A stretch of DNA of 64,000 bases from Bdellovibrio sp. ZAP7 (GCA_945878405.1 CAMCTJ010000007.1:74779-138778); one strand, 5' to 3'. Counted from the first letter of the stretch, positions 32,841 through 61,766 are shown. Notes: generated from the letters alone by a model not told the origin. Program-made: numbers and translations.

Positions 32841-33162
32841 GGGCTTTTCCTTAAGCAAAACCCAATCCAAATCTAGACAGCCGTAAACTCGATAAGCAGG
32901 TGTCTAACTTTTTTGGGACTACACCAGGAAGATTAAAAAACCACAATGAGAGCAGCCTCTTAGAATGTCTAATTCCTATACACCATTAAGTTCCTACAAA
33001 TTCCAATGCACAAACGAGGGCTTAGCCAAAAGGTACGGCTTTACTTTAGGCGGTTTTTTAATATCCTAGAAGATATCCCAAGGAGCGCTGCGAGGCACCT
33101 TCTGCCCTAGGCTTGGAATTTATAACGGCGCTCAATCCAATAAAATTTTTAAGGAGCCAGAC

Positions 33163-46154: not shown

Positions 46155-47348
46155 TTAGGTGGGCGTCTTTGGTATTAAAGCTTTGGTTTTTTCCCAAAAG
46201 CGATTCAACCCAACTGTCGGGTTTAGCTCACCTTGATAGTAGCGGTACGCGTTTTCGCTAAAAAGCGAATAAGAAGAATCAATTTGAGCAATAGCAGAGC
46301 CGATATCAGTCCACTCGTTGAGAGCTATTCCAAATGAGTAATTTGAAAGAGCTTCCTGCAGGCTAGGTAAAGGAGTCGTGATCACCGGTTTTTTTCGAGA
46401 GCAATAGTAAGCTATTTTGGTGGAAGCTTTCCCGATATGAAAAAGCGTTTGATTCACCATCCAAGAGGAAGGCTGAGGAAAATAAGGAGCAAGGCCGATA
46501 TAACTCTCATCTATTAAATCCACTAAGCCCTTCTCATCTAGAAAATCAAAAGTGAAATGGAGCCCCTGATTTTTTTCAAGGCGTCGAATCCTCTTCAGTA
46601 GTTTCGAAGGGGGTTTAAAATGTGTGTGTACTCTTAAGTAAAATGTTGGCGGGATATTCAAAGCAATTGTGTCGAGCATTTCCTCCAAGTTCCATTTTTC
46701 TAAGTTCCCGCAATAGAGAATCATTTTCCCGGTTTTATTAGGGGAGACGTTTGAGGGGAGAGGAAAGCGCTCTTCTGGAGCTACTGCAATGCAATCAATC
46801 GGTTTTCTCCCAATATTTAGTTCTTTTGAGATTAAATCCTTTCTGTTTTTATCCTGACTCAAAACTAAGACAACGGAAGGTAAGCTAGCGGTTTCTTTTC
46901 GAGCAAGCGCCCTCTCATTAGCGGTTCTTAATTCAGTTCTAAATAAAATATGAAAAGATAAGTAAACTACCGGAACCTTTTTGGGAATCTCCATGCGACT
47001 TAAAAGACTCAACCCAGTGGCATCGCAGGTTACTATCAATGAATAATGGCTTTGATGAATGAGGTCTTTCAGTCGGAAAAAATGAATCACACTCCGCCAA
47101 ATCGTTTTTAATTTCCAGGGGCGCCGAAAACTTTGTTTAAAAGCTGAAGGAATGATTCGCCTCACCAACCATACCCACTCAGCAATTTCTTTTCCTTCGC
47201 CTAGACAATTGGAGCGGCTCGGGCAAACCAGATCAAAAGAGAGGTTGTCCGCTTGGCACCTCTCGACCAGAGAATCACAATTAGGATTGGCTCGCCAATA
47301 GCCGTAGGGATATAAAAAAAGAATCTTTTTTTGAGCGCTCAGGTCCAT
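46155..47348 (-). CDS. Hypothetical protein, possibly GT-B-fold glycosyltransferase-like
   Basis: 397 aa with no strong motif. First of a run of co-oriented, overlapping genes in a glycosyltransferase cluster. Confidence 0.35.
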   Translation of the reverse strand: MDLSAQKKILFLYPYGYWRANPNCDSLVERCQADNLSFDLVCPSRSNCLGEGKEIAEWVWLVRRIIPSAFKQSFRRPWKLKTIWRSVIHFFRLKDLIHQSHYSLIVTCDATGLSLLSRMEIPKKVPVVYLSFHILFRTELRTANERALARKETASLPSVVLVLSQDKNRKDLISKELNIGRKPIDCIAVAPEERFPLPSNVSPNKTGKMILYCGNLEKWNLEEMLDTIALNIPPTFYLRVHTHFKPPSKLLKRIRRLEKNQGLHFTFDFLDEKGLVDLIDESYIGLAPYFPQPSSWMVNQTLFHIGKASTKIAYYCSRKKPVITTPLPSLQEALSNYSFGIALNEWTDIGSAIAQIDSSYSLFSENAYRYYQGELNPTVGLNRFWEKTKALIPKTPT

Positions 47349-48052
47349 TTTTTTAATTTGCCTAACAGTTGTTCGTCGAAGTCCCGATGGGAGCGTCGAA
47401 GCATTTCATGATTGAGATGGAGTCCGAGAGCTTTTTGAGGGGGCCGCCATAAGCTTTCAGAATTTGTGAGGAGTTCTGTTTCATCCCATCCCAAAGCGCA
47501 AAACTCCCAGGACGGACGAATATATGAAGCGAGACCAAATCGCTGTACTGCTTGATTGAGAAGCCTCGGCCCGATCTGGCCCCATTCCAAATGATCCGGT
47601 GAGATCTTAATAGACTCTTCCCAACAATATTTCATAACTGGAGACTGGGGGGGAGTTTTGATGACACAGCTAGCAGTGATTCTATCTGTTTCTGTAGTGA
47701 GTGTTTCGCTCGCAAAAACATATGGGACAGAATCAAAATTCCACTCAGCGAGACAAAAAACATCCGTGTCTATCCAAACCCCCCCTTTTTTTAAAAGAAG
47801 AGCATAACGAAAGATATTAGAAAAAGCCGAAAAGCTTCCCTTTCCGGGCCCCTTTTTATATTGGAAAATGTTTTCTTTGGGAAGGATCTCGGTGGCATCC
47901 TTAATAACGACGCCCTCCGGCACCGCTTCTACCAACTCATAGCAATAAAGCTCAACCTGGTGATGGTATTTCACAAAGCTTTTTAATGCCTCTGTGTGTA
48001 GGGGTTTTAATTGCGGGCCAACCCATAAAGTCTGTAAAGCTGTAGCTGACAT
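47339..48052 (-). CDS. DXD-motif glycosyltransferase (sugar-binding region, GT32-like)
   Basis: 237 aa. 'KKGGVWIDTDVFCL' matches the Gly_transf_sug DxD region. 10-nt overlap with the downstream gene. Confidence 0.5.
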   Translation of the reverse strand: MSATALQTLWVGPQLKPLHTEALKSFVKYHHQVELYCYELVEAVPEGVVIKDATEILPKENIFQYKKGPGKGSFSAFSNIFRYALLLKKGGVWIDTDVFCLAEWNFDSVPYVFASETLTTETDRITASCVIKTPPQSPVMKYCWEESIKISPDHLEWGQIGPRLLNQAVQRFGLASYIRPSWEFCALGWDETELLTNSESLWRPPQKALGLHLNHEMLRRSHRDFDEQLLGKLKKWT

Positions 48053-48084
48053 AAAACAGACTTTATCCTACACTTAGAACTTCG

Positions 48085-48200
48085 ATGAAAAAACTCATAA
48101 TTCAAATACCCTGTTGGAATGAGGCGGAGACGGTTAGTGAGACCATTTTAGCGCTCCCCACCAGGGTAGAGGGTTTTGATTCAGTTGAGGTCTTAGTCAT
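48085..48200 (+). pseudogene. Remnant of a GT2 polyprenol-phosphate glycosyltransferase (N-terminal ~38 codons only)
   Basis: 'MKKLIIQIPCWNEAETVSETILALPTRVEGFDSVEVLVI' aligns with 'LKLIIQIPCFNEEKSLPLALAALPREVPGFETVEWLVVDDGS' of the intact GT2 at 60795-61736. Homology is lost after about 38 codons. Confidence 0.5.
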
Positions 48201-48205
48201 TATTT

Positions 48206-49174
48206 TTAAAACGACTCGGGCTTTAGCGCTGTCTTATTTCCGATATGCAATAAAGCCAAAACTCCTCCCCAAATTCGCCCCAACAAGAGCTGGCCTTGAA
48301 GAGCAAGCTTGAATTTACCAGGGCCGCGACAAGGTCTAAAGGCCATCCAGATTAAAATCGGGTTTTTTAAAATAGCGTAAACATTCGGCCAAATAACTTT
48401 GTGAAAAATGGAGTTTTTCCCTGATAAGTAGAGTTCCATTTCAGCGTCAGAACGCCCCTGCCACCAGGCTCTTCTTCTAAAGTAGCCTTGTGTTAATCTA
48501 TCAGTGCTAATCTGATGAAAACCTTTTATTGCGGGGTCATAAAAAAACCTAGCTCCCAGAGCTTCTAGTTTAAGTAGAGTCAGAGTTTCATCATTACTTC
48601 TCAAGTTGCCCGTTTGTCGGTTAATACGTTCGTCAAAGCCACCGATTTTTCTTAGTAAATGAGCTGGGAGAACCAAATTCGCAGAACAAAGTGCCTTAGC
48701 TTGCACAGGAATAAAATCAGGTCCTAACTGAATAGAGCTGAGATAGTTTTCAAGAAAAGGGCCATACCAACGGGGAAGAGGACTGTGAAAGTTTAGTTGT
48801 ACTTTTCCGCCCAAACAATCCGTTGACGTATCGAGAGTTAAATATCTTTCAAAAATTCGTTCTAGCCATTGGGGATGAGGTAACGTGTCATCATCAAGAA
48901 AGGCGATCAAACTACCTGCAGCCGCTTTAAACCCTCTGTTTCTCGAAAAATTTGAGCCCACTCTCAATTCTTTAAGCATTCTCAGGTTCGGCAATCGGCC
49001 TTTCCATTTTTCCAAAACATCTTGAGTGTTATCGGAGGAAGCATTGTTGACTATGATAGCCTCCCAAAACTGAGAGGGTAAACTTTGAGAGGCTAGCTCC
49101 ATTAAAAGTCTTTCCAGTTGGTTTTGTCGATCCCTCGTGGGAACGACTACTGAAATGAAACGATCGGAAATCAC
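48206..49174 (-). CDS. Glycosyltransferase family 2
   Basis: 322 aa. 'ISVVVPTRDRQNQLERLL', 'AFLDDDTLPHPQWL' (DxD). Confidence 0.7.
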   Translation of the reverse strand: MISDRFISVVVPTRDRQNQLERLLMELASQSLPSQFWEAIIVNNASSDNTQDVLEKWKGRLPNLRMLKELRVGSNFSRNRGFKAAAGSLIAFLDDDTLPHPQWLERIFERYLTLDTSTDCLGGKVQLNFHSPLPRWYGPFLENYLSSIQLGPDFIPVQAKALCSANLVLPAHLLRKIGGFDERINRQTGNLRSNDETLTLLKLEALGARFFYDPAIKGFHQISTDRLTQGYFRRRAWWQGRSDAEMELYLSGKNSIFHKVIWPNVYAILKNPILIWMAFRPCRGPGKFKLALQGQLLLGRIWGGVLALLHIGNKTALKPESF

Positions 49175-50310
49175 ACCATCTTCCCCTTGGTTTGGAGTGA
49201 AGACTTTAAGAGCTCAAACAGCCGATTTCCCAATTGCCCCCATTCGTAACTAGCAAGTTCTTTGGAGTCGGGGTGGCTCCATTTATCTTGGTCCATTAAT
49301 CGATTTCTAAAAAGCTCGAGCGGGGCGATATGAAGTCCCTTTAGATTCTGGTTAAATCCCCGAACTCCAAAGGGAGTAGTGAGAACAGCGAGCCCATTTC
49401 CCAAACATTCTATGAGCTTTACATTACTTCCGGAACCCGAACAAACGGGGTTCAGCGCCACGTCACTTTCCTTAAAAAACGGGAATAAATGATTCTGAAC
49501 ACCGCAGGAAATGATGTTTTCCGGAAGAGACTCTGATAATTGAACATTTCCAACAACGAGTAATGACCATCGATGTTTTATTTCTGGATGAACAAAAAGA
49601 TGGGCGAGGGCTTGCAACCCCCTTTGATTGTGAATTGAGTCGCTAGCAACATACAACGCAATACGGTGGTTTTCAGCAATGCCCCATGCTTTTTTAAACT
49701 TTGGGGTGCTCTCTCTCGAATTGAGATGTTCTGTTGAGGTGTTGTGAAATCCATTGGGGAGGCTCTGTATCAATTTTCCGGGCCTTAGTTTTTCAAAAAT
49801 AAGTTTATCTTCTTCTGAAACACAAACGACTAAATCTGCTTCTTTAATTGCTCTTTGTTCATTTCTTTTTAAAAGTGCAACTGCCCGAGGTGAAAAACCG
49901 TCGTGATACATGGCTTCGTGGTTATGTGCTGAGAGCACTTTGACTTTACCTGTGACACGCTTTGCAATTTGCCAGAGAAAGGGAGACTCAGAAATGACGA
50001 TATCAAAAGTTTCTTTTAAAGGGCGTGGAAGCGGCAGAAAAGTATTGAGACTGCTGGTAAGTGAATAAGAGGGGAAACCCAAACGTGAACTCAGGCCATC
50101 TAACCATTGTATTTGATTTTGTGACTCATAATGGCTACAGCGAGGAACAAGCTCTTGGGATTCAAGAGGTGAGAGCCTGGGTGAGATAAAAGACCAAACG
50201 GTGACTTGAGCCCCCTGATGGGCCAATTGCTCTGCCAAACTACGAATTCGGGTCACCGCTCCATTGAAATTATTGATAAGACGATGGTGAGTGAGAACCA
50301 GAACCTTCAT
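49171..50310 (-). CDS. Glycosyltransferase family 1 (GT4-type)
   Basis: 379 aa. 'MKVLVLTHHRLINNFNGAVTRIRSLAEQL' and C-terminal GT-B donor region. Confidence 0.65.
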   Translation of the reverse strand: MKVLVLTHHRLINNFNGAVTRIRSLAEQLAHQGAQVTVWSFISPRLSPLESQELVPRCSHYESQNQIQWLDGLSSRLGFPSYSLTSSLNTFLPLPRPLKETFDIVISESPFLWQIAKRVTGKVKVLSAHNHEAMYHDGFSPRAVALLKRNEQRAIKEADLVVCVSEEDKLIFEKLRPGKLIQSLPNGFHNTSTEHLNSRESTPKFKKAWGIAENHRIALYVASDSIHNQRGLQALAHLFVHPEIKHRWSLLVVGNVQLSESLPENIISCGVQNHLFPFFKESDVALNPVCSGSGSNVKLIECLGNGLAVLTTPFGVRGFNQNLKGLHIAPLELFRNRLMDQDKWSHPDSKELASYEWGQLGNRLFELLKSSLQTKGKMV

Positions 50311-50620: not shown

Positions 50621-53600
50621 GTGAAACGCTTCCTTCCATTTCATGCTGTCCTTTTATTCTTCGCGGTTTGCTTTGCTTCTTTTGCAGAAGAAAAAGGTCG
50701 GCTGAGTGCGAGTGATTTGGCGCCTGGTGCATCGGATGGTTTCGTCTTTAGTAATTCCGCAACTCCAGATACTCAGTGCGATGAGGGCAGTGGGGGTGAC
50801 TGCTGCGATGGAACTCTTCAAGAAACGTTTGCCGGGGTAACGAAATTCACAACAAGTTACTGCAAAGGCCGATATGCCGGAAAAGCAAGCTCCACTCGTT
50901 ACGGAATTCGGTTTGATACGTTTCACGCTTTTCGAAGTATCCTCAACGAAAATCAGTTAGTACTTGTGAATTCGAATGCTGGATGCACGAGCGGCGACTG
51001 CTGCCCCACCGGCGGAAGTAAGACCTATAACTGGCTCCTAGTAAGAGCGAGACCTTTTGATAATTACAGCTCGCCGATGGATATGTCGCTGGATACGACT
51101 TACGTTGGGGGAACCATCACCTATGACCATTCGCAAACTGTAAAGTGGTCCGGATCTTCAAAATTTAGTTTAAATGCCCTAGATGCTGAAACGAAGACTA
51201 ACTCCTCTGCTTATGGAGCCCGGCTTTTTGGAACTTCTACCTGCAGCGCGGGAGAATTTAAAGCAAGCGCAGTCACAGATTTTACTGCCGCCAATAGGCC
51301 TCTTGGAAATTATGGGTACTGGCTCTTTGGTAAGAACGTAGCTTTCTACCGACAGGTAAGTGCAGATCCTGTCATTGCCGTTGCTTTTCCAAGGCCAGCG
51401 CAGAGTCTGAGTTCTTCTGGAGTAATGGCTAGTAAGAACAAACAAGTTTTTACTGGAAATTATACCGGCTTCACGACGAGGGGAGTTCAGGTTCAAAGAA
51501 ATGTCATGCTGATTCCTGATGTCGCGGGAACAACTTTTACGATTTCGGAAGTAGCAGATCCCTCCAATCCCTTCTCAGTCAGCACTCTGGGGACTTTAGC
51601 TTGCACGAATTTAGATGAGCCGAGCCAAGGTTTCTGCCGAGGCACCCTGACCCTGACTGCAGTTCCTGGATTTTCAGGAAAAGCCACTTGCATGATGGCT
51701 TACGATATCGGTAATCGGGATCTTGTTTTTTGTAGCGCGCAGAATCCCTCCGCTGATAGCAATCACCAACGAGCGCTCGTCACCATTGCGGCAGTTTCAT
51801 CGCACAAGAGCGTTCTTGCGATGACTGCGTCGCCAGTACACTTAGATGCCAATACCTCCAGTGGGCAAATGTGTGCAACCGTGGAAAATATGACGTCGCG
51901 AGCAGTCGACACATTAACGCTTACTGGAAACTTAAGTGGTGACTTCTCGGCGGTTTCTCTCTCAGGTTCTGTCACAGCGCCGTTCAGTGGCCTTACTGGT
52001 TCAGTGTCAGCTTGTGGCACTTCTTTGCCAGCTTTTTCAAAATGTAAATTGTGTTCGAATGTTACTTTAACGACTCAAAAAGTAAGTGCCCACGCTTTAA
52101 CCCTGACTTTTGGAGATACACCGAGTTCGACAAAAAGCATGTCAGACACAGCGGTTGCGACTCGTGGGGTTTCGAACCTTCAATATGAAGTGGGGAAAGT
52201 AACCCAGAACAAGACTCCCTCGGTTAAAGCCGTCTTTGCCAATGGCACTACCCAAAACATTGATGCAATTAAGGAAAAGCTACAGTGTTCAGGAGTTTGT
52301 ACTTCAGCCACTGGAACCCGATCGCTTGCCTATACCTTGGAAGGCCTTGAGAGCGCTCCCGCAGTGGGCGATGTGCTCGTAAGCACTGAAGAAGAGCTTT
52401 GTTACAACGAAGAAGACGACGACAACGACGGAACCACCGACTGCCAAGATAACGACTGCGATTCCGAAAGAGCAGATATCAGTCACACCGATATTCTATG
52501 TAATTATAATAGCGAGCGAGATTGTGCAGACTCTTTTGATAATGATCGAGATGGGAATACCGATTGTGATGATGGAGATTGTGCCCTTGCATGTAATGTT
52601 TGGGAAACCGCTTGTAACAATAGTCTCGACGATGATTCTGACGGAAACACAGATTGTGCCGATTCAGATTGCAACGGACAAGTAAATGCTGACTTTAGAT
52701 ACTGTGGTCTCGAGACTCACTCCTATGGTGGGTGTGTGCTCGATGGAGTTGACGATGACAGCGACGGTTATACCGATTGCGCCGATCCGGATTGTTACGG
52801 CGGTTATGTTGGTTGGGGACCCTATGGAGGAACTTGTGACTCTGGAACTGAAACTAATTGCAGCGATGGATACGATTTCGACGGCGATGGTTTAACTGAC
52901 GCCAATGATCCAGATTGTGTGGTCTGCCTTGATTCTGACGGCGATACGTTTGGTGACGGTTGCTCTGCTGGCTCCGATTGCGATGATAACTTCAGCGACG
53001 CTTCCAACAATTGCTCCGACAACGTGGTTTTAGATTTGCGTTTCGATACAGATACGAGCGATTCCTCGAACTATCATCACGCGGTTGGAGCTAATGGAAG
53101 CCCCGCTATTTCCACGAGCAACGCGAAGTTTGGTGGAGGGAGTGCAAACTTTAATGGTAACGGCGACAGAATCGATATTTCCTCAAGCACAGATTTTGAT
53201 CTGGAAGACGGGGACTACACTATTGAGTTCTGGACTTTTGTACGAAGCGTAGCAGGGTCAGATGCTGCTAGATTGTTTACTTTAGAAAATAACGATGAGG
53301 CGTGGGGAATAATTCTTGCCAACGATGGTAGCAACAGTCTTTACGTGAATCATTATGGAATTGGTGAGGGTTTTGAAGTCAGTGGCGCACTCAACGGGAA
53401 ATTGAACCAGTGGGTGCATCTGGCCTTGGTGAAGAACGGCACAACTAGAACTCTTTATATTGATGGGGTAGCTGGAGGCTCGACCAACTCAAGAGTGTTG
53501 CCGGCTAATGCTGCGCAATTATCAATTGGTGGCAGTACCATTTGGTATCCTTATACACAGTTTGACGGTCTTATCGACGAACTGAAAATCACCAAAGGCT

Positions 53601-56600
53601 ATGCACGCTACACCACAAACTTCACACCTCCCACTTGCGCATCGATGAGCGAATCCGATGCCGATAGCGATGGTATCTGTAATAGCGCGGATACTGAAAG
53701 CTGCAGTGATTCGATTGATAACAACGGTAATGGCCAGACGGATGAAGAATGTTCTTCTTGCAACAGTAGCGATTCCTCCTCGGCAATTTGTAACCAAACT
53801 GGCACTTGCTGGAATCAAAGCGGTTGTCAGTGTGGAGTCTATGATTCAGTTAGCTACGGGCAATCCTGTACGATGGGCGGTGGCGGATCAACCGAAAACT
53901 GTTCTGATTCATTAGATAATGATTCCGATGCTTCAACCGATTGCCAAGATGCGGATTGTGATGGGGTGTCAGGCGGTAGCGGTATCTGTCACAACAATTC
54001 TGAAACTTGTAGTGATAGCTTTGATAATAATGGCAATGGCCAGACAGATGAAAATTGTTATCCCTGCATGGACAACGACGGCGATGGATATGGTTATTAT
54101 TGTGCGATCGGTGAAGATTGCGACGATTGGGCTAATTGGATAAACCCCGGTGCTTCAGAAATCTGGAATGGGTACGATGACAACTGTAACGGCCAGGCCG
54201 ATGAAGGACTTGGCAATCCCTTTGACTGGGACGGAGATGGGTGGCTATCTTACATGGGAGATTGGTTTGATTGCAATGATGCCGATGGGTCCATAAACCC
54301 CGGTGCTTCCGAAACCTGCAGCGACTCAGTCGACAACAACTGCGATGGCCAGACAGATGAAAATTGTTATCCCTGCATGGACTACGACGGTGACGGGTAT
54401 GGTTACTACTGTGTTCCCGGCGAAGATTGTCAGTGGAATATGGGAGAGGGGAATTCCGCTATTCACCCCGGAGCTGCAGATGACCAAAGCGATGGTACCG
54501 ACAATGATTGCGACGGTCAGATCGATGAAGATTATACAGTTCCGTGCACAGATTCGGACACTGATGGCGTGTGCAGTGGATCTGACTGTGACGACAGCAA
54601 CGCAATCTTCAGCACAGATTGCAGCAGCAACGTGGTTTTAGATTTGCATTTTAATAGCGACTTCAGTGATTCTTCGGGTCACAATCACAATGGGACTCCA
54701 AATGGAAATGCGGAAATCAGCTCTGATGTTGCCAAGTTCGGGGGAGGCAGTGCGCATTTTGATGGAAGTTCTTGGTTAACAGTAACGGCGTCTTCAGCTC
54801 TCGCTGTGGGAACGGGTGATTTTACCTTGGAAGCCTGGGCTTATCCGACACAAGTTAATGACTTTAGCGATTTGGCTGCCGTACTAGATACACGGCCCTA
54901 TGGCGCGGGAACTGGCTTACTGATTTGGTTGGATTCTGCTTCTGGAAAATGGGTAGGGTATACCTCTACAAACGGAAATGAGGATCAACTTGTTATTAGT
55001 TCCCCTACAACAGCAACCCTCAATGCGTGGACTCATTTAGCATTGGTGCGTTCCGGAACAAGTCTTAGGTTCTTTGTAAATGGAGAACTTGCCGGAACCG
55101 AAACTTTAAATGCTAACTGGAATTTTACTCAGGACACTACGGCACCGGGTTTTGTGGGAACTGCAGCCGATGCCCCTGGATACTTCCGCAACTTCTATGG
55201 CTATATCGATTCAGTAAAAATCACCAAAGGCGCAGCGCTCTACACAACCACCTTCACGCCCGCTACTTGCGCATCGATGAGCGAATCTGATGTCGATAGC
55301 GATGGCATCTGTGATAGCGCGGATACTGAAAGCTGCAGTGATTCAATTGATAACGATGGCGATAGTCAGACAGATGAAGAATGTTCTTCTTGCAACAGTA
55401 GCGATTCCTCCTCGGCAATTTGTAACCAAACTGGCACTTGCTGGAATCAAAGCGGTTGTCAGTGTGGAGTCTTTGATTCAGTTAGCTACGGGCAATCCTG
55501 TACGATGGGCGGTGGCGGATCAACCGAAAACTGTTCTGATTCAGTAGATAATGATTCCGATGCTTCAACCGATTGCCAAGATGCGGATTGTGATGGGGTG
55601 TCAGGCGGTAGCGGTATCTGTCACTACAGTTCAGAAACGTGCAGTGATAGCTTTGATAATAATGGCAATGGTCAAACAGATGAGAACTGCAATTCTGACG
55701 TAAGCGGCGGCGATCCGTACTTTGATGATGTGAGAGTGCTTGTTCATGCGGACGAAAACATTACGAATCATGCAAACGGGGGAACGCCCACAGTAACTTT
55801 CGTTGGCGGAGCGAATTACTCGACCTCCGACAAGAAGTTTGGATCAGCTTCCGCGCAGTTCTCACCGCAGATAACCCAGTACTGCGATGGGTGGTGGGGT
55901 TGTTATGACCAGTTAGTAGTTCCCAATTATTTAAAGATAAACGACACCTCAAGAACGATTCCTGCGAATTACACTGCTGAGTTCTGGGTAAAACCCGATT
56001 CCGATTGGAGTGGCGCAGTCTCAAGAAGATTATATCAACGAGGCGTTAGCGATATGGGGATGTATGGTATCGATGTTTATTACAATAACAATCGAATCTA
56101 TTTTAGTTTTTACAATAGCAATTATTACTATGATGGGTCTGGTGAGGGGGGGTGCGATCAATCGGGTAGCACTTATGGAGATGTTGGTACTTTGAGTGCG
56201 AACACTTGGTACCACGTAGCGATTGTGAGAGAGGGTAGTGCGATCAGAATTTATTTCAACGGAAACCGAATTGGGACGGGCACACTAAGCGCTAATTCCT
56301 ACACGTATTGGGGCACAATTCCCTCATGTACTGCCACAGAAGCTATCACACTTAGCGATTGGGGAAATGTAAACGAAGGTTTCGGAGTATCTTTTGACTA
56401 CGGTGACAATATTTACGATAACGTCACCGCTAAGTTTGACGAAATCCGAATCAGCAACAGAGCTCGTTACTCAGATACAAGCTTTACTCTTCCCACTTCG
56501 CCGTATCCCAATACCAAGCAAGCGGTAGCTCCCGAAATCAGTATTTCGCCCTCGAGCTACACGTTAACAGCTGGCACAGCGATGACAGCGATTGTTCCAA

Positions 56601-59299
56601 GCCTCACCATGGGCACGATTGATTCTTGCGTTGTATCGCCTTCGCTCCCCGCAGGATTGTCGTTAAATAGTTCCACTTGCGGTATTTCTGGAACTCCGAC
56701 TTATGGTGGAGGCTCGCAGTCTTATACGATTACTCCTTCGAACTCGGTCGGTACTGGTAATAGTGTCACCGTATCATTGACCATTAACGGTGCGGATGCT
56801 GGCGGCAATTATTACACCGGTGGTTCATTGGCTAGTGGAGTTGTTAATAACGCCGCGGGGCTTTCTGTCGAGTTCAGTAATTCAAATGATTTCACATCAA
56901 ACTTCGCAATCACAACACCAGCTGACGGAACGGCAACTGTCACGAACGGACAACTAGAATTTAGAAACCCAAATCCCGACAGACTTCCTGGTTATCATTT
57001 CAAGAACCCCGTATCTGCTTCGGCTATCGAAATCAAATTTACTCATCCAAGCCTCTATCCAAATTGGCATTGCCCAACTATTGCATTCTCCAATGGACTG
57101 GGTACTTTCACTGTTGCTTATGATCCGAAATATTCGGATGGCGGTTGGTGCGATGCAAACTCAATCAAGACTTCATTTGGCAGCTTCCCCATGGGTCATT
57201 TAGCCGGTGGCCAAGCTCATATCATTAAGCTTGAGGTCAATACACAAACACAAACTGCTACCCTCACGATTGATGGAACCTCACAGACCTATACGAATGC
57301 GATGTTTGCACAAAAACTCACCAACTTTGAACATGTACCAAATTATTCGTGGTACTGCGGCAGTTACACTACTTACATTGATTATGTCAGAGCCTACGAT
57401 TATGGTTGCTACTCAAATGGCTCGGCTGACAGTAGTTTCAACGCAAACGGAACGGGTTTCTGCAGCGGCACTTACTACATCGGTGGAGTAGCCTACGCAG
57501 GATTAGATTCCAACGGAAATGGAACGTCTGGTGGATTGCTTTACTCAAGTGGTTCACTCTTTACCGGAATGTACTCGGATTGGAACTGCTACGTTAATGG
57601 CGCCAATACTGGTGGCGTCGTGAGTGGTACCGGCTGGTGTAGTGCGGATAGTGTTTATTACGTAAGCTACAGCGGAACGAGTCTTCCCTCCAGCGGCACT
57701 GGAAACTACATGGGCAACTATTACAGTAGCGGCACATTGGTAGGCACAACGGCTTCGATATCGATTATGAGTCAGCCGTCCGATCAAACGGCTTCAAGCG
57801 GCAGCGCTACTTTCAGTATTGGTGCAAACATCACGGCTCCCGCTTCACTGAGTTACCAATGGCAGAAACAAGAAAGCGGCACGGGAAGCTTTAGCGATAT
57901 CAGCGGGGCAACGAGTGATTCACTTGTGCTTTCAAATCTGACCTATTCTTCAGATAATGGAGATGTGTATCAAGTCGTGTTGAGCGGAACACAAGGGGCC
58001 TCGAGTATTACCAGTAGCTCTGCAACGTTGAGTGTTCCTGTTTACGCTCCCGATGTACCGACTTCTGTAAGTGGAGCCGCTGGCAATGCCGAAGTGGAAG
58101 TAACGTGGACTGCCCCTAGCAATAATGGTGGAAGCGCGATTACGGATTATGTGATTCAGATTTCATCTGATAGCGGAAGCTCTTGGACAACTTACAGTGA
58201 TAGCGCTTCTACTTCAACGAGTGCTTCAGTAACCGGATTAACCAATGGCACAAGCTATGTCTTCCGAGTTGCCGCAGTAAATATTGGAGGTACAGGAGAT
58301 TTCAGTCTTGCTTCGACTTCAGTCTCTCCGAGTGCCAATGCAGGGGATCCTTATTTCAGTGACGTAAGAGTACTTGTGAACGCGGACGAAAACATTACGA
58401 ATCATGCAAACGGGGGAACGCCCACAGTAACTTTCGTTGGCGGAGCGAATTACTCGACGTCCGACAAGAAGTTTGGATCAGCTTCTGCACAGCTCTCACC
58501 GCAGATAACCCAGTACTGCGATGGTTGGGGTTGTTATGACCAGTTAGTAGTTCCCAATTATTTAAAGATAAACGACACCTCAAGAACGATTCCTGCAAAT
58601 TACACTGCTGAGTTCTGGGTAAAACCCGATTCCGATTGGAGTGGCGAAACCTCAAGAATGTTATATCAAGGGGGCGTGTTTGATCCTGGAGTAAGCGGGC
58701 TTCAGCTTTATCATTACAACGGTCGTCTGTACCTCAGTCTGAATAGCTATAACTATGGCTATTATTCGGGTCAGGGCGACTGGAGTTGCAATCATTCTGG
58801 TTACAACTATGCGGATGTGGGTACTTTGAGCGCGAGTACTTGGCACCACATAGCGATTGTGAGAGAGGGCAATGCACTCAGACTTTATTTCAACGGAAAC
58901 CGAGTCGGTAATTCAACGATTAGCGCCAGCTTCGAATCTTATGATGGCTCTTCGCCTGCCGGTGGATGTACAGCTTCGGGCGCTATCTCTTTGAGTAGTT
59001 GGGGTGAAACAAAGGCGGTCTTCGGCGTGGAGTCGGACTACAGTGATTATGTTTTCAGCAACGTCACCGCTAAGTTTGACGAAATCCGAATCAGCAACAG
59101 AGCTCGTTACTCCAGCGCTACTTATACTGTTCCAACCGCAGCATTCCCAAAAAGTGCAGCGCCTGTCTCTTGCAATAGTGAGACTTATGCGGGAGATACT
59201 TGTAACCAGGTTGGAACCTGTTACAGCCCTACGGGCTGTTCGTGTGGCATTTACAGTACTATCTCCTATGGAGATACCTGCTCCAATCCCGGCCAGTAA
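50621..59299 (+). CDS. Giant secreted multidomain surface protein (2892 aa)
   Basis: Domains in order: signal peptide (MKRFLPFHAVLLFFAVCFASFA), TSP3-like Asp/Cys Ca-binding repeats, MopE-like Cys/Asp repeats, four concanavalin-A/LamG-like modules, a He_PIG-type Ig domain, an Ig-like domain, FN3, and a C-terminal Cys-rich knot. It is a single uninterrupted 8.7-kb ORF, and all large opposite-strand ORFs lie inside it. Domain motifs include 'DNDxDGxTDCxDxDC', 'INPGASExC.D.VDNNCDGQTDE', 'DFTIEAW...WHHVAIVREG..LRLYFNG', 'LPAGLSLNSSTCGISGTP' and the FN3 'VEVTWTAPSNNGGSAITDYVIQ'. Confidence 0.85.
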   Translation: MKRFLPFHAVLLFFAVCFASFAEEKGRLSASDLAPGASDGFVFSNSATPDTQCDEGSGGDCCDGTLQETFAGVTKFTTSYCKGRYAGKASSTRYGIRFDTFHAFRSILNENQLVLVNSNAGCTSGDCCPTGGSKTYNWLLVRARPFDNYSSPMDMSLDTTYVGGTITYDHSQTVKWSGSSKFSLNALDAETKTNSSAYGARLFGTSTCSAGEFKASAVTDFTAANRPLGNYGYWLFGKNVAFYRQVSADPVIAVAFPRPAQSLSSSGVMASKNKQVFTGNYTGFTTRGVQVQRNVMLIPDVAGTTFTISEVADPSNPFSVSTLGTLACTNLDEPSQGFCRGTLTLTAVPGFSGKATCMMAYDIGNRDLVFCSAQNPSADSNHQRALVTIAAVSSHKSVLAMTASPVHLDANTSSGQMCATVENMTSRAVDTLTLTGNLSGDFSAVSLSGSVTAPFSGLTGSVSACGTSLPAFSKCKLCSNVTLTTQKVSAHALTLTFGDTPSSTKSMSDTAVATRGVSNLQYEVGKVTQNKTPSVKAVFANGTTQNIDAIKEKLQCSGVCTSATGTRSLAYTLEGLESAPAVGDVLVSTEEELCYNEEDDDNDGTTDCQDNDCDSERADISHTDILCNYNSERDCADSFDNDRDGNTDCDDGDCALACNVWETACNNSLDDDSDGNTDCADSDCNGQVNADFRYCGLETHSYGGCVLDGVDDDSDGYTDCADPDCYGGYVGWGPYGGTCDSGTETNCSDGYDFDGDGLTDANDPDCVVCLDSDGDTFGDGCSAGSDCDDNFSDASNNCSDNVVLDLRFDTDTSDSSNYHHAVGANGSPAISTSNAKFGGGSANFNGNGDRIDISSSTDFDLEDGDYTIEFWTFVRSVAGSDAARLFTLENNDEAWGIILANDGSNSLYVNHYGIGEGFEVSGALNGKLNQWVHLALVKNGTTRTLYIDGVAGGSTNSRVLPANAAQLSIGGSTIWYPYTQFDGLIDELKITKGYARYTTNFTPPTCASMSESDADSDGICNSADTESCSDSIDNNGNGQTDEECSSCNSSDSSSAICNQTGTCWNQSGCQCGVYDSVSYGQSCTMGGGGSTENCSDSLDNDSDASTDCQDADCDGVSGGSGICHNNSETCSDSFDNNGNGQTDENCYPCMDNDGDGYGYYCAIGEDCDDWANWINPGASEIWNGYDDNCNGQADEGLGNPFDWDGDGWLSYMGDWFDCNDADGSINPGASETCSDSVDNNCDGQTDENCYPCMDYDGDGYGYYCVPGEDCQWNMGEGNSAIHPGAADDQSDGTDNDCDGQIDEDYTVPCTDSDTDGVCSGSDCDDSNAIFSTDCSSNVVLDLHFNSDFSDSSGHNHNGTPNGNAEISSDVAKFGGGSAHFDGSSWLTVTASSALAVGTGDFTLEAWAYPTQVNDFSDLAAVLDTRPYGAGTGLLIWLDSASGKWVGYTSTNGNEDQLVISSPTTATLNAWTHLALVRSGTSLRFFVNGELAGTETLNANWNFTQDTTAPGFVGTAADAPGYFRNFYGYIDSVKITKGAALYTTTFTPATCASMSESDVDSDGICDSADTESCSDSIDNDGDSQTDEECSSCNSSDSSSAICNQTGTCWNQSGCQCGVFDSVSYGQSCTMGGGGSTENCSDSVDNDSDASTDCQDADCDGVSGGSGICHYSSETCSDSFDNNGNGQTDENCNSDVSGGDPYFDDVRVLVHADENITNHANGGTPTVTFVGGANYSTSDKKFGSASAQFSPQITQYCDGWWGCYDQLVVPNYLKINDTSRTIPANYTAEFWVKPDSDWSGAVSRRLYQRGVSDMGMYGIDVYYNNNRIYFSFYNSNYYYDGSGEGGCDQSGSTYGDVGTLSANTWYHVAIVREGSAIRIYFNGNRIGTGTLSANSYTYWGTIPSCTATEAITLSDWGNVNEGFGVSFDYGDNIYDNVTAKFDEIRISNRARYSDTSFTLPTSPYPNTKQAVAPEISISPSSYTLTAGTAMTAIVPSLTMGTIDSCVVSPSLPAGLSLNSSTCGISGTPTYGGGSQSYTITPSNSVGTGNSVTVSLTINGADAGGNYYTGGSLASGVVNNAAGLSVEFSNSNDFTSNFAITTPADGTATVTNGQLEFRNPNPDRLPGYHFKNPVSASAIEIKFTHPSLYPNWHCPTIAFSNGLGTFTVAYDPKYSDGGWCDANSIKTSFGSFPMGHLAGGQAHIIKLEVNTQTQTATLTIDGTSQTYTNAMFAQKLTNFEHVPNYSWYCGSYTTYIDYVRAYDYGCYSNGSADSSFNANGTGFCSGTYYIGGVAYAGLDSNGNGTSGGLLYSSGSLFTGMYSDWNCYVNGANTGGVVSGTGWCSADSVYYVSYSGTSLPSSGTGNYMGNYYSSGTLVGTTASISIMSQPSDQTASSGSATFSIGANITAPASLSYQWQKQESGTGSFSDISGATSDSLVLSNLTYSSDNGDVYQVVLSGTQGASSITSSSATLSVPVYAPDVPTSVSGAAGNAEVEVTWTAPSNNGGSAITDYVIQISSDSGSSWTTYSDSASTSTSASVTGLTNGTSYVFRVAAVNIGGTGDFSLASTSVSPSANAGDPYFSDVRVLVNADENITNHANGGTPTVTFVGGANYSTSDKKFGSASAQLSPQITQYCDGWGCYDQLVVPNYLKINDTSRTIPANYTAEFWVKPDSDWSGETSRMLYQGGVFDPGVSGLQLYHYNGRLYLSLNSYNYGYYSGQGDWSCNHSGYNYADVGTLSASTWHHIAIVREGNALRLYFNGNRVGNSTISASFESYDGSSPAGGCTASGAISLSSWGETKAVFGVESDYSDYVFSNVTAKFDEIRISNRARYSSATYTVPTAAFPKSAAPVSCNSETYAGDTCNQVGTCYSPTGCSCGIYSTISYGDTCSNPGQ
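53581..54061 (+). repeat. Intragenic direct repeat A, copy 1 (~480 bp; second copy at 55211-55690, ~95% identical with >100-bp exact runs)
   Basis: Both copies encode 'TCASMSESD.DSDGIC.SADTESCSDSIDN.G..QTDEECSSCNSSDSSSAICNQTGTCWNQSGCQCGV.DSVSYGQSCTMGGGGSTENCSDS.DNDSDASTDCQDADCDGVSGGSGICH..SETCSDSFDNNGNGQTDENC'. Confidence 0.85.
55211..55690 (+). repeat. Intragenic direct repeat A, copy 2
   Basis: See copy 1. The two copies are about 1.63 kb apart. Confidence 0.85.
55701..56480 (+). repeat. Intragenic direct repeat B, copy 1 (~780 bp LamG-like module; second copy at 58341-59115)
   Basis: The first ~300 bp and last ~60 bp are near-identical between copies: 'GDPYF.DVRVLV.ADENITNHANGGTPTVTFVGGANYSTSDKKFGSASAQ.SPQITQYCDGW' and '..NVTAKFDEIRISNRARYS'. 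The middle is diverged but homologous. A 3-nt indel distinguishes WWG from WG. Confidence 0.8.
58341..59115 (+). repeat. Intragenic direct repeat B, copy 2
   Basis: See copy 1. The two copies are about 2.64 kb apart. Confidence 0.8.
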
Positions 59300-59317: not shown

Positions 59318-60805
59318 TCAGTGTGTCCGCGTCCACAAACAAAGATCCTGAGCAAACCCTTCCTTGAGGTAATTGCGTTCCACAGTGCTCAGTTTTGTAA
59401 AAAAGAAGTCATCAATTGCAACGTAGAGGATGTTTTCTTCCTCAAGGCGATTCTTTTCAAACAAGCGACTCTCCTGTGCTCTACTGCCAGACACAGGAAA
59501 CCCGGGGAGAACCTGATCCACTTCATCCATGCTTCGGGGAGACCGCAGCCATTGCGCTTGGGAGTCTTCGTTGAACACATAAGCAGGGCATCGACTAAAC
59601 CAAACGTAAAAGACAGGATCGGTTCTCCTAAGCTTGTATAAGGCTGTGCTCAAAACTTCAATTTGTTCTCTTCTCTTTTGGGTTTCGTTTCTCATTTCTA
59701 AGGGCAGTGCCAAAGCGGTATTGAGGAGTGCTACCGCTAAAAGCCCCCCCAGGACGACGGGTTCAAATTTTCCCCAGGGAATCTCAAGTAGTATCTGAAA
59801 AACAAAAACCACCATCAGGGGGAGAATCAGCAACAGAGCATATTCGTGAATGGGGCTCAGGAGAAACAATCCACAGCTGAGAGCTGCAATTAACAATAAG
59901 TATCTCAGAGGTGTTCGCGTTTTTTTATTGAGGATTGCCGAGACGATACTCCCCACGAAGAGGGCCAGAAACAACAACAAAAGAACAGGGTCGCTCTTCC
60001 AGAGCTTAAAAAACAAGTCGGCAACGACTTCCGTTTTTTCAACCACTCGTTTTGAGATGAGGTTGAGGTTCATCAAGAACATATGATCAATCGCAGCGTA
60101 AAGGGCTCCTTGAATAGCCAGCACAAGCCCGATAATACCCAAAGAGATTATCTCTCCCCAAACCAGTGAAAACCGTCTTTTGATTGGTACCTTAAATCCT
60201 AAAGCCACTTGATCAGCTATTAGGAATCCTAAATTTAAAGGCAAAAACTTAGGGTGAAACCCAAGCGCAAGCCCCAAACACATTCCGGCGAGCAGTCTTT
60301 TTTCCCGAGATAGAAGAAATAGAAAAAGGACACATAAGAAACCAACCGTGATATCCGGGCGTGTCTGAAATGCAGTTCCTTGAACTATCCTGAGACTCAG
60401 AAAGAGGGCCCCGGCCACAGTCCCCTTGGCTATCTTTCGAGAGCCCTGAGTTAACGTCGAAACTGTGATGCCTACCATCATGGCAGTTACTCCTGCCATC
60501 AGAAGGGGAAACAAACGTAAATAAGTCAGGGTTTCAGCAGACTCAACCGCTCCGGGCTTTATCCAGAGCAACAAAGCATTCAGCCACGCAAAGACAGGTC
60601 CGTGGTGTTCAAAAAAGTCTTTGAAAATAATTTTGCCTCTAAAAACATTCCAAGCAATATGCGTGTGCTGGAGGTCGTCCTGGCCAAAAGAATAGGCAAA
60701 GGCTCTCGCTCCCAAGGCATATAAGTGGTACCCGAACACCAAGACAGATCCGAGGATCAAAAGTACTCCCCACCACTCAACCGTTTTTTTCTTTTTAGAA
60801 TCCAT
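59318..60805 (-). CDS. Polytopic membrane glycosyltransferase of the PMT/ArnT (GT39/GT83-like) family (candidate)
   Basis: ORF 59318-60868. Likely start 'MDSKKKK'. About 12 TM helices. The first loop 'YHLYALGARAFAYSFGQDDLQH' resembles the 'LRLYGLG..DE' loop of GT39/83 enzymes. Overlaps the upstream GT2 by 11 nt. Confidence 0.5.
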   Translation of the reverse strand: MDSKKKKTVEWWGVLLILGSVLVFGYHLYALGARAFAYSFGQDDLQHTHIAWNVFRGKIIFKDFFEHHGPVFAWLNALLLWIKPGAVESAETLTYLRLFPLLMAGVTAMMVGITVSTLTQGSRKIAKGTVAGALFLSLRIVQGTAFQTRPDITVGFLCVLFLFLLSREKRLLAGMCLGLALGFHPKFLPLNLGFLIADQVALGFKVPIKRRFSLVWGEIISLGIIGLVLAIQGALYAAIDHMFLMNLNLISKRVVEKTEVVADLFFKLWKSDPVLLLLFLALFVGSIVSAILNKKTRTPLRYLLLIAALSCGLFLLSPIHEYALLLILPLMVVFVFQILLEIPWGKFEPVVLGGLLAVALLNTALALPLEMRNETQKRREQIEVLSTALYKLRRTDPVFYVWFSRCPAYVFNEDSQAQWLRSPRSMDEVDQVLPGFPVSGSRAQESRLFEKNRLEEENILYVAIDDFFFTKLSTVERNYLKEGFAQDLCLWTRTH

Positions 60806-61736
60806 GAGAGGAAAGTCGATAACGAATGTCTTCTGCGAGTTTTCTATTCGCTGCCAGGACTTCAGCAATCAGTGCTAACAATAAAGTGCCAAACCCAAAG
60901 AGTAATAACACGGCAGCTAAGATCAAACTCTGAATATGGCCTGCATTTTCGTCTCCGCTTTGGAGGTAGTAGTACAAAAAGCGCAATCCAAGCACCGTTC
61001 CTAGTACTAAAAAAACGCTCGCAATCGAGCTGAGAAACTTAAACGGTCGGTAGATAAGAAAGATGCGAAAAAGGGTGATGATACTTTGTCTGATGTAGTT
61101 GGGAATGCTTTTAACCAACCGGGAGGGCCGTAACTCACCATTGGTTTGAATAGGCACTGAGGCAATTGCCATGTTCAACTGACCCGCTTGAATGATTGTT
61201 TCTAGAGTATAAGTATAATCATTGTAAACCATGAGGTGACTCGCCATGGTTTTACTAAAAGCCCGAAATCCACTGGGGGCATCTGGAATGTCTGTGCCGC
61301 TCACAACGCGAACCACCCAACTCCCCAGCCTTTGAAGTTTTTTCTTCAGAAACGAGAAGTGGGCGATGTTATCAATGGGTCGAGCCCCCACGACTAAGTC
61401 CGCTTTTCGTTTAATAATTGGTTCTGTTAGCTGAGGGATATAAGAAGCATCATACTGATTATCAGCATCCGTATTTAAAATAACATCCGCGCCTTCTCTT
61501 AAGCAGGCTGAGATGCCCGTCATAAAAGCTCGAGCAAGTCCCTGGTTGCGAATATGGCGTACGACATGATCTACGCCATGCGCTTTAGCAACCGCCGAAG
61601 TACCGTCTGTGCTTCCATCGTCAACTACCAACCACTCAACCGTCTCAAATCCTGGGACCTCTCGCGGAAGTGCAGCCAAAGCTAAGGGCAGACTTTTTTC
61701 TTCATTAAAACAAGGTATTTGAATAATGAGTTTCAA
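60795..61736 (-). CDS. GT2 polyprenol-phosphate sugar synthase (DPM1/ArnC-like) with C-terminal TM helices
   Basis: 'KLIIQIPCFNEEKS', 'VVDDGSTDGT', 'DADNQYD'. Two C-terminal TM helices. A probable TTG start at 61736 avoids the head-to-head overlap of the ATG at 61802 with the methyltransferase gene. Confidence 0.65.
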   Translation of the reverse strand: MKLIIQIPCFNEEKSLPLALAALPREVPGFETVEWLVVDDGSTDGTSAVAKAHGVDHVVRHIRNQGLARAFMTGISACLREGADVILNTDADNQYDASYIPQLTEPIIKRKADLVVGARPIDNIAHFSFLKKKLQRLGSWVVRVVSGTDIPDAPSGFRAFSKTMASHLMVYNDYTYTLETIIQAGQLNMAIASVPIQTNGELRPSRLVKSIPNYIRQSIITLFRIFLIYRPFKFLSSIASVFLVLGTVLGLRFLYYYLQSGDENAGHIQSLILAAVLLLFGFGTLLLALIAEVLAANRKLAEDIRYRLSSHGF

Positions 61737-61766
61737 TGTAAAATAGTTTAGGTCAAAAGAAGAAAT

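Follow-up and report, generated by a model that had tools for sequence, protein, structure and literature searches.

A direct in-frame repeat with mosaic divergence inside a giant modular gene of Bdellovibrio sp. ZAP7

Concerted evolution by gene conversion of intragenic repeats is a general phenomenon in large bacterial surface and adhesin proteins, and homologous pairing between repeats needs a few tens of bases of uninterrupted identity. A close experimental system is found in Deinococcus radiodurans, where 438-bp direct repeats located 1,479 bp apart are deleted equally often in recA+ and recA-deleted cells, and where a single mismatch cuts the deletion frequency by about 4.8-fold (PMC4627823). 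Strain-variable genomic islands of cell-envelope genes, giant surface proteins among them, are described as "metagenomic islands" (for example PMC3458243 and PMC4535781).

Here, we analysed a 64,000-nt stretch of DNA from Bdellovibrio sp. ZAP7 (the window), in which one giant gene carries a long direct repeat, repeat A. Its geometry is nearly identical to that of the Deinococcus assay, with a repeat of 426-486 nt, 1206 nt between the ends of the copies and 1632 nt from start to start. However, the natural copies are mismatched at 24 of 426 positions, while the repeats of the assay were identical or singly mutated (PMC4627823). As in the adhesins that evolve in concert, the modules lie in frame in one large, apparently secreted protein, the divergence between copies is mosaic, paralogous segments of a second repeat (B) are closer to each other than to their orthologs, and the module content varies between strains. 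In contrast to adhesin arrays, there are just two dispersed copies of repeat A separated by unrelated modules, and no long tandem array. With the metagenomic islands, the locus shares the envelope-gene setting and an architecture that differs among close relatives while the flanks remain syntenic. By analogy, the locus may be linked to phage or grazer pressure.

Repeat A within the giant gene

The giant ORF (50621-59299, plus strand, as for all features below) starts with GTG and encodes 2892 aa. Its N-terminal leader, read by eye, is hydrophobic and signal-peptide-like, and the gene lies among glycosyltransferase and LPS-core-type genes. We infer a surface-type or adhesin-like role for this apparently secreted protein. 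From the N-terminus, the modules follow in the order N (residues 1-592), acidic double-disulfide repeats (593-797), LamG1, A1, MopE block, LamG2, A2, B1, He_PIG, X, Y, Ig, FN3, B2 and C-tail. Against Pfam, the protein matched Laminin_G_3 (PF13385; E = 2.7e-58, 196.8 bits against a cut-off of 27.6, four stretches), MopE (1.1e-16), fn3 and He_PIG, and it scored 82.1 bits over seven stretches against the NCBIfam model NF033662 (acid_disulf_rpt; cut-off 41). The PF13385 matches correspond to the domains adjoining repeat A, not to repeat A itself.

Self-comparison placed the first copy of repeat A (A1) at 53633-54058 (aa 1005-1146) and the second (A2) at 55265-55690 (aa 1549-1690), both directly oriented in the same ORF and offset by exactly 1632 nt, i.e. 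544 codons in frame. The DNA homology extends upstream to about 53572 for A1, inside the last ~20 codons of LamG1, and to about 55204 for A2. When the gene was compared with itself by blastn, 53572-54057 aligned with 55204-55689 at 91.8% identity over 486 nt (E = 0), above the 80% below which the initial annotation would have abandoned the repeat, and a separate repeat search of the DNA recovered the same pair. Over the module proper (53633-54058), 402 of 426 positions are identical, leaving 24 mismatches; uninterrupted identity reaches 100 nt at most (53741-53840), and the next stretches measure 80 and 70 nt.

The long direct repeat inside one giant ORF thus stands as initially annotated, while several of its figures need correcting. 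For the proposed copy at 53581-54061, the in-register partner is 55213-55693 and not 55211-55690, which implies an offset of 1630 nt and an identity of 21%. Instead of a uniform ~95%, identity amounts to 91.9% over this 481-nt span (442 of 481), 94.4% over the 426-nt module and 99.2% over a 252-nt core, and the longest exact run does not exceed 100 nt as had been claimed. The shared Cys/Asp-rich unit of ~160 aa corresponds well to 142 aa of unit A plus ~20 residues of the preceding LamG C-terminus, and the ~1.6-kb spacing is in agreement with the measured offset. The block between the copies (54059-55264) does consist of LamG and MopE sequence, namely one block of MopE-type repeats (54059-54625, aa 1147-1335) followed by one LamG domain, LamG2 (54626-55264, aa 1336-1548); this inter-copy block scored 88.4 bits against MopE (3.4e-25). 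LamG1 (53012-53632), which precedes A1, shares 34% of its residues and 48% of its DNA with LamG2, which precedes A2, and synonymous divergence between the two is saturated (pS 0.75). This is no "tandem-like" array. In a multi-domain protein whose modules have been shuffled, the two copies stand interspersed among other modules; such a repeat, with its probable gene conversion, is ordinary for large modular surface proteins.

Both unit A copies lie directly 3' of a LamG domain and are 93.7% identical at the protein level, with 142 aa, 16 Cys and no Lys or Arg. Each unit consists of an acidic double-disulfide repeat, a small 6-Cys core and two more acidic double-disulfide repeats, the edges carrying the pattern C-x-D-x-x-D-N-D-x-D-x-x-x-D-C-x-D-x-D-C. 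Unit A alone scored 40.9 bits over two stretches against NF033662, marginally below the cut-off of 41, and 15.7 bits (E = 0.019) against MopE (PF11617; cut-off 27). It also gave a weak match over 25 residues to the Cys-rich region of teneurin (PDB 7plp_A, E = 0.035). The 6-Cys core matches neither the acidic repeat nor MopE nor teneurin, and the core of A1 gave no match to EGF_2 (PF07974) in Pfam. A third, diverged copy of this core forms the 44-aa C-tail (59165-59296), with 45-48% aa identity to residues 42-83 of A1 and A2; it scored 17.5 bits (E = 0.005) against EGF_2, under the cut-off of 22.1. A single-sequence AlphaFold2 prediction of LamG1 plus A1 (349 aa) yielded an unusable model (pLDDT 33, pTM 0.17). 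Scanning with unit A returned one distant acidic-repeat match among metagenome contigs (L011) and only distant acidic-repeat matches among genome contigs, in Deltaproteobacteria, Desulfobulbaceae and Myxococcota MAGs and in one Croceicoccus isolate; the genome-contig scan recovered neither the window's own species nor the sister lineage L004. A word-index protein homology search with unit A returned nothing and also missed P0001, a known carrier, so absence is not implied by this result. The 6-Cys core motif appears to be lineage-restricted and undescribed.

Mosaic divergence of repeats A and B

The mismatches between A1 and A2 are distributed very unevenly. In the core of the unit (53741-53992 in A1, 55373-55624 in A2), 250 of 252 positions agree (99.2%), and when the 24 mismatches were scattered at random 100,000 times, a 252-nt segment with two or fewer never arose (p < 1e-5). 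This core encodes the 6-Cys motif and one acidic double-disulfide repeat, and its two differences are both non-synonymous (Y1074F, L1098V). Synonymous changes number 0 at 52.5 sites in the core versus 15 at 30.7 sites in the unit edges (Fisher p = 2.5e-8), and third codon positions differ at 0 of 84 versus 15 of 58 (p = 4e-7). For the edges, pS is 0.49 and dS about 0.79. Two yardsticks of age are provided by the pair B1-B2, with a dS of 0.77, and by the N-domain compared between the window and L004, with a dS of 0.35. Since the edge value matches that of B1/B2 and exceeds the divergence from the sister lineage, the duplication of unit A is old.

The initial annotation had regarded the repeat as a young duplication. 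Under this view, a ~480-bp piece or an entire LamG+A block would have arisen by recent copying and would show little divergence. The identity of the copies, 94% across the 426-nt unit and 99.2% across the 252-nt core, together with their in-frame register, is what such an event would leave. However, it would not leave one unit with synonymous changes at its edges and none in its core, nor edges more diverged than the two lineages are from each other, nor adjoining LamG domains sharing just 34% of their residues. Moreover, the sister lineage (P0001/L004) carries a single A unit that is a block-wise patchwork, with 13 A1-only sites, 11 A2-only sites and 9 sites where A1 equals A2. As this unit holds variants of both types, the A1 and A2 types are older than the split. 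A recent paste of the 252-nt core alone into an existing homologous unit would itself be gene conversion. A recent origin of the duplication is thus unlikely.

The mosaic instead argues that the module was duplicated long ago and that gene conversion has recently made the middle of the two copies alike, a reading to which we assign a probability of about 0.7. The duplication would then be at least as old as that of B1/B2 and would predate the split from the L004 lineage. More recently, a non-reciprocal homologous exchange would have replaced the central ~252 nt of one copy by those of the other, while both edges kept their old divergence. With three near-identical A sequences to compare (A1, A2 and the L004 unit), the ends of this tract are approximate, and either copy may have been the donor.

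Repeat B offers an independent view of this process. B1 (55691-56506, aa 1691-1962) is a LamG-type module directly after A2, and B2 lies at 58325-59164 (aa 2569-2848). The two are 76-78% identical in DNA overall, but 90-98% identical in the 5' part (~55748-56046 versus ~58382-58677), which includes exact runs of 77 and 71 nt. In alignment columns 60-300, B1 and B2 of the window agree at 96-98% of positions, compared to 82-94% for orthologs. In the rest of the repeat, B2 is closer to its orthologs (78-92%) than to its paralog (53-78%), whereas for B1 orthologs exceed paralogs only near the 3' end. These alignments show homogenisation of the 5' third of repeat B by concerted evolution, apparently through the same process as in unit A, and gene conversion of the same type would account for it.

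Between lineages, too, no other DNA of the gene has diverged as little as the A core, whose dS between the window and L004 is 0.04 against 0.35-1.15 elsewhere (p ~4e-5 against the N-domain at 0.35). The likeness of the core between lineages goes beyond what intragenic conversion alone can produce and needs either recent inter-lineage exchange or constraint at the DNA level. Selection on a functional element embedded in the core, whether an overlapping ORF, an RNA structure or a binding site, could in principle hold synonymous sites nearly invariant both between copies (dS 0) and towards the sister lineage, and an 85-codon ORF in another frame does lie in the core of both copies (53658-53915 and 55290-55547). 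However, the predicted RNA fold of the core does not stand out from those of shuffled sequences (z = 0.05), its base composition and GC3 are unremarkable, and within the core we found no Rfam match and no enrichment of promoter-like or terminator-like sites; the alternative-frame and antisense ORFs gave no match to Pfam. Patchy homogenisation is also present in repeat B, so that general recombination fits better than two hidden elements. We therefore give very little credence to such constraint.

Recombination potential, assembly and relatives

A1 and A2 qualify as recombination-prone direct repeats, since they have the same orientation, share uninterrupted stretches of 100, 80 and 70 nt and are nearly identical in the core. 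Unequal recombination between them is plausible and would remove or add exactly 544 codons (1632 nt), giving products of 2348 or 3436 aa with the reading frame intact; a deletion would take A-unit sequence together with the MopE/LamG2 block. With direct, in-frame copies sharing a 252-nt tract at 99.2%, either unequal crossover or single-strand annealing could delete or duplicate this MopE+LamG+A block. The attribution to RecA in the initial annotation is too narrow, given that the Deinococcus repeats are deleted equally well without recA, and the 24 mismatches in the unit lead us to expect a lower recombination frequency, as a single one has a marked effect in that assay (PMC4627823). A second in-frame substrate overlaps the A1 boundary: the 3' end of A1 and the start of the MopE block (54033-54120) recur at 54342-54429, 86% identical over 88 nt and offset by 309 nt or 103 codons.

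The direct, in-frame geometry proposed for deletion or expansion is therefore borne out, but neither the window nor two further full-length assemblies show an allele of this gene shortened or lengthened by 544 codons. Both of these, L001 and L002, contain the 2892-aa gene with two A copies; across the gene, L001 is identical to the window and L002 differs by one base. Elsewhere, the three differ mutually at 4-12 sites as scattered SNPs.

The matching ENA contig (ERZ27280281 k141_85286) comes from a metagenome assembly and is accompanied by a MAG; its name suggests a final k of 141. In such a source, a two-copy layout could come from fusing co-existing strains or from joining short reads wrongly through shared sequence, the more so as giant repeat-rich genes fragment in short-read assemblies (bioRxiv 10.1101/2023.11.21.568195) and contigs of relatives often end inside the gene, at aa 487-878. 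However, no k-mer of at least 101 nt is repeated within the 64-kb window, and with a longest exact repeat of 100 nt A1 and A2 never share a graph node at k = 141. Furthermore, copy-specific variants run continuously into the unique flank of each A copy, and three assemblies that differ elsewhere agree on the 2892-aa product. An assembly artefact is thus very unlikely, and the collapse at repeat A that had been feared is unlikely in this assembly. A k of 141 suffices to separate the A copies, but a k of 99 or less does not. The fragmentation of other assemblies, which agrees with the short-read trouble that had been expected, would fit this, though those breaks lie upstream of unit A.

Five relatives share syntenic flanking genes and a conserved N-terminus (80-93% identical), but five different architectures follow downstream. 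In line with the variation between strains that had been expected, architecture thus varies among relatives, one of which has a single A unit. However, the architecture of L004 is not the simple product of an A1 x A2 deletion: the LamG in front of its A unit is only 30-35% identical to either LamG of the window (LamG1 or LamG2) and has the MopE block on its upstream side. Crossovers of the above type, together with exchange between strains, would be the likely source of the differing domain orders.

A near-identical repeat pair in a protein of surface type that carries lectin-like domains, and hypervariable LamG types beside a conserved unit, could also bring to mind programmed diversification, either by a diversity-generating retroelement or by cassette antigenic variation with silent donors. 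The mismatches are not confined to adenines (A in A1 is involved in 13 of 44, and all substitution types are present), and no reverse transcriptase was found among the Pfam-annotated genes within ~10 kb on each side, so a diversity-generating retroelement was rejected. Both copies are in frame within one ORF, and tblastn of the 64-kb window found no A, B or LamG cassettes outside the gene. We consider a programmed system exceedingly improbable.

Unit A might act as a conserved homology linker for the exchange of LamG cassettes and not merely as a passive repeat. In the window and L004, three LamG types that are mutually 30-35% identical precede an A unit that is 93-94% identical, and each LamG in the window has a conserved ~60-nt block at its 5' side (53010-53068 and 54618-54676, 75% identical) and unit A at its 3' side. 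The low divergence of the A core between lineages points in the same direction. We regard this role as a doubtful suggestion.

Nothing in these data suggests that a novel type of mechanism is at work. That intragenic repeats are highly identical is no proof of youth; in this gene, the synonymous mosaicism points to an old duplication partly maintained by conversion. As the domain orders of relatives differ, annotation, pangenome and read-recruitment work at this locus needs care, and the gene marks variation between strains of an uncultured lineage. If the linker role were true, A-anchored recombination, both intragenic and between strains, would shuffle lectin-like domains while keeping unit A homogeneous, and would provide a built-in, recombinase-free variation of a surface protein.

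The giant gene and its repeat A

The whole repeat region lies within a single open reading frame (50621-59299, + strand), which starts at GTG and encodes 2892 aa, with an N-terminal hydrophobic leader that looks by eye like a signal peptide. A Pfam search of the product revealed Laminin_G_3 (four domains), MopE motifs, a He_PIG Ig domain and fn3, and an NCBIfam search found seven NF033662 acidic double-disulfide repeats (82 bits). Segment-wise blastp was used to derive the module order: N (aa 1-592), acidic Cys/Asp repeats (593-797), LamG1 (798-1004), A1 (1005-1146), MopE block (1147-1335), LamG2 (1336-1548), A2 (1549-1690), B1 (1691-1962), then He_PIG, X, Y, Ig and FN3, followed by B2 (2569-2848) and the C-tail (2849-2892).

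The two copies of unit A, A1 (53633-54058, +) and A2 (55265-55690, +), each comprise 426 nt and lie in frame in a register of exactly 1632 nt (544 codons), with 94.4% DNA and 93.7% protein identity over the module. A repeat search and a blastn comparison of the gene with itself recovered a direct repeat of 53572-54057 with 55204-55689 at 91.8% identity over 486 nt (E = 0). The repeat is real and far above chance, and its structure had been described largely correctly in the initial annotation, with small corrections to identity, coordinates and run length. The identity of about 95% given for the ~480-bp segments becomes 91.9% (53581-54061 versus 55213-55693); a second copy at 55211-55690 is off by 2-3 nt, its implied 1630-nt offset yielding 21% identity; and exact matches reach at most 100 nt, followed by runs of 80 and 70 nt, not more than 100 bp. 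LamG1 and LamG2, directly before A1 and A2, share 34% protein identity with saturated synonymous sites. Their first ~60 nt (53010-53068 and 54618-54676) are 75% identical, compared with ~48% in DNA elsewhere in the domains, so that every LamG has a conserved block at either end, this one at 5′ and unit A at 3′.

Unit A contains 16 Cys, 27-30 Asp plus Glu and no Lys or Arg, and consists of an acidic double-disulfide-type repeat, then a 6-Cys core of ~42 aa (C-N-x..-C-N-Q-x-G-T-C-x4-G-C-x-C-G-[VI]-[YF]-..-S-Y-G-x-x-C), then two further acidic repeats. The whole unit falls just below the cut-off of 41 bits for NF033662 (40.9) and below that of 27 bits for MopE (15.7), and the 6-Cys core matched no Pfam family. 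A PDB sequence search with unit A gave one weak match, 25 residues of a teneurin-4 chain (7plp_A), and a single-sequence AlphaFold model of LamG1 plus A1 was unusable (pLDDT 33). Copies of the 6-Cys motif lie at 53759-53881, 55391-55513 and 59165-59296, the last being a diverged C-terminal copy (45-48% identical) with a sub-threshold EGF_2 match (E = 0.005). When the core profile was searched against 1.84 billion representative proteins, only P0077 (aa 407-452) and P0078 (aa 155-196) matched. P0078 is a piece of another, related giant gene, and P0077 shares an Ig-type repeat with the giant protein, which suggests that it comes from a related organism. The motif is present in two or more distinct large surface-type proteins, one with RCC1 repeats, and appears restricted to this lineage.

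Age of the duplication and probable homogenization of its core

A1 and A2 differ at 24 sites, which are strongly clustered. The central 252 nt (53741-53992 and 55373-55624) contain only two, both non-synonymous, with 0 changes at ~52.5 synonymous sites, whereas the edges (first 108 and last 66 nt) contain 22, with 15 changes at ~30.7 synonymous sites (pS 0.49, dS ~0.79; Fisher's test, p = 2.5e-8). At third codon positions, the core has 0 differences in 84 and the edges have 15 in 58 (p = 4e-7), and when the 24 mismatches were placed at random 100,000 times, no 252-nt segment with two or fewer was produced. As a yardstick for the edges, the second repeat pair, B1/B2, has a dS of 0.77; between the N-domains of the window and its ortholog on the sister-lineage contig L004, dS is 0.35. 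The simplest reading of these sequence comparisons is that an old duplication of the module within the giant gene was later patched by gene conversion, which would recently have overwritten up to ~250 nt and left the near-identical core. The duplication had been taken as young from this near-identity, an age that the divergence of the edges contradicts.

A similar patch is found in repeat B (55691-56506 and 58325-59164), a LamG-type pair of ~270 aa with 76-78% overall identity, which rises to 90-98% near the 5′ end (~55748-56046 versus 58382-58677). B1 and B2 were aligned with their two orthologs from L004. Across columns 60-300, identity is 96-98% between the two window paralogs and 82-94% between orthologs, whereas over the other ~500 columns the B2 orthologs (78-92%) are more alike than the paralogs (53-78%); for B1 this holds, outside columns 60-300, only near the 3′ end. 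Judged from this alignment, it is the classical signature of concerted evolution, confined to a patch.

The L004 protein, P0001, is the sole full-scale homolog found (JGI contig; at least 3637 aa, N-terminally cut; N-domain 93% identical in protein). P0001 contains one A unit, which shares 95% DNA identity with each of A1 and A2 and, like A2 in the window, precedes B1. The LamG ahead of this unit shares just 30-35% identity with LamG1 and with LamG2, and has the MopE block on its upstream side. The sites of this A unit are mixed block-wise, 13 matching A1, 11 matching A2 and 9 where A1 equals A2; both variants are therefore older than the lineage split, and unit A has recombined repeatedly. 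Between the window and L004, no part of the gene has diverged less than the A core (dS 0.04 versus 0.35 in N and 0.47-1.15 in other modules; p ~4e-5). Intragenic conversion alone does not explain this low divergence, which suggests that the lineages recently exchanged DNA here or that the core is under some constraint.

An RNA or reading frame embedded in the core as the source of constraint gained no support: the fold z-score was 0.05, an Rfam search of the giant gene gave no match, and promoter-like and terminator-like sites were not enriched. Both copies carry an 85-codon, ATG-started alternative-frame ORF (53658-53915 and 55290-55547, +) within the homogenized core, probably a by-product of codon composition; the alternative-frame ORFs matched no Pfam family. 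A diversity-generating retroelement (DGR) was rejected, as the A1/A2 mismatches are not adenine-specific and no reverse transcriptase appears among the annotated genes within ~10 kb. Variation from silent cassettes is unlikely within the 64-kb window, which carries no repeat copies outside the giant gene.

Recombination potential and assembly

Since the copies are direct, in frame and share long exact runs, crossover or single-strand annealing between A1 and A2 could delete or duplicate 1632 nt, which would give proteins of 2348 or 3436 aa. Such loss or gain, as initially proposed, is plausible by analogy, but calling it RecA-mediated is too narrow: in Deinococcus, spontaneous deletion between 438-bp direct repeats spaced 1,479 bp apart is equally frequent in recA+ and recA-deleted cells (PMC4627823). 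In the same assay, one mismatch lowered the deletion frequency ~4.8-fold (PMC4627823), so the 24 mismatches here would be expected to reduce the rate. No such deletion or duplication allele was seen among the assemblies compared, and the single-A architecture of L004 is not a simple A1 × A2 deletion product.

The window is matched by L001 (ENA ERZ27280281 contig k141_85286; 4 mismatches over 21 kb), L002 (MAG GCA_964203895.1; 8 mismatches) and L003 (a Logan contig; 0 mismatches). L001 and L002 are distinct assemblies, since each departs from the window at sites of its own. The three full-length versions (window, L001 and L002) all carry the same 2892-aa gene, with no difference in it between L001 and the window and one SNP in L002. 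In the 64-kb window, all repeated k-mers of at least 55 nt fall inside repeats A and B, and none reaches 101 nt. At k = 141, which we infer for L001 from its contig name, the copies would never share a graph node, while at k ≤ 99 the A copies do. The suspected short-read collapse at repeat A is therefore unlikely in this assembly. In six other assemblies, contigs end inside the orthologous giant gene (L015, ERZ28593230, 15372-17168; L017, JGI 3300042957, 8272-9912; L018, ERZ18669848, 6298-8931; L003 3-1673; L012 578-2959; L023) after 372-878 residues of it. Related assemblies in which the gene is interrupted in this way include GCA_009927005.1 and GCA_009920425.1. Such frequent contig ends in relatives, at aa 487-878 of the gene, are consistent with an earlier report on giant repeat-rich genes (bioRxiv 10.1101/2023.11.21.568195). 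The breaks lie upstream of unit A, where the conserved N-terminus passes into the variable, repeat-rich part and architectures diverge.

Related genes and genomic neighborhood

Elsewhere in the window, an SAH riboswitch (33074-33140, +; Rfam RF01057, 51.8 bits) directly precedes an S-adenosyl-L-homocysteine hydrolase gene (33163-34563; AdoHcyase 3.7e-143), the expected arrangement. An 815-aa ORF (8494-10941, +), whose cluster members are named 'phytoene desaturase' or 'phytoene/squalene synthetase', may encode a fusion protein. A 687-aa protein (36654-38717, +), in which VKOR is combined with matches of thioredoxin, AhpC-TSA and Redoxin type, may be a periplasmic enzyme that forms disulfides; a functional link to the 112-Cys giant protein ~12 kb away is speculative.

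Glycosyltransferase genes (GT4, GT2, Gly_transf_sug and a weak GT87-like match) flank the giant gene on both sides (46155-50310 and 59318-62414), and on the longer contig heptosyltransferase and KdtA-type genes are also nearby, placing it in a cell-envelope glycan neighborhood. The related P0076, L018 and P0078 match at 80-90% DNA identity over the N-domain and the two acidic repeats that come first, and then diverge completely: in P0076 an fn3-type domain comes next, and L018 and P0078 both have a diverged A-core-like motif, together with a LamG2-like domain in L018 and a jelly-roll-type domain of a different kind in P0078. The flanking riboflavin and glycosyltransferase genes are syntenic across the relatives' assemblies. 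The process proposed for repeat A is familiar biology, and the shuffling of modules among relatives is plain to see in this gene; the loose ends worth noting are the unusually low A-core divergence between lineages and the lineage-restricted 6-Cys motif. Combined, the divergent downstream modules and syntenic flanks indicate a strain-variable modular gene within this envelope-glycan region.
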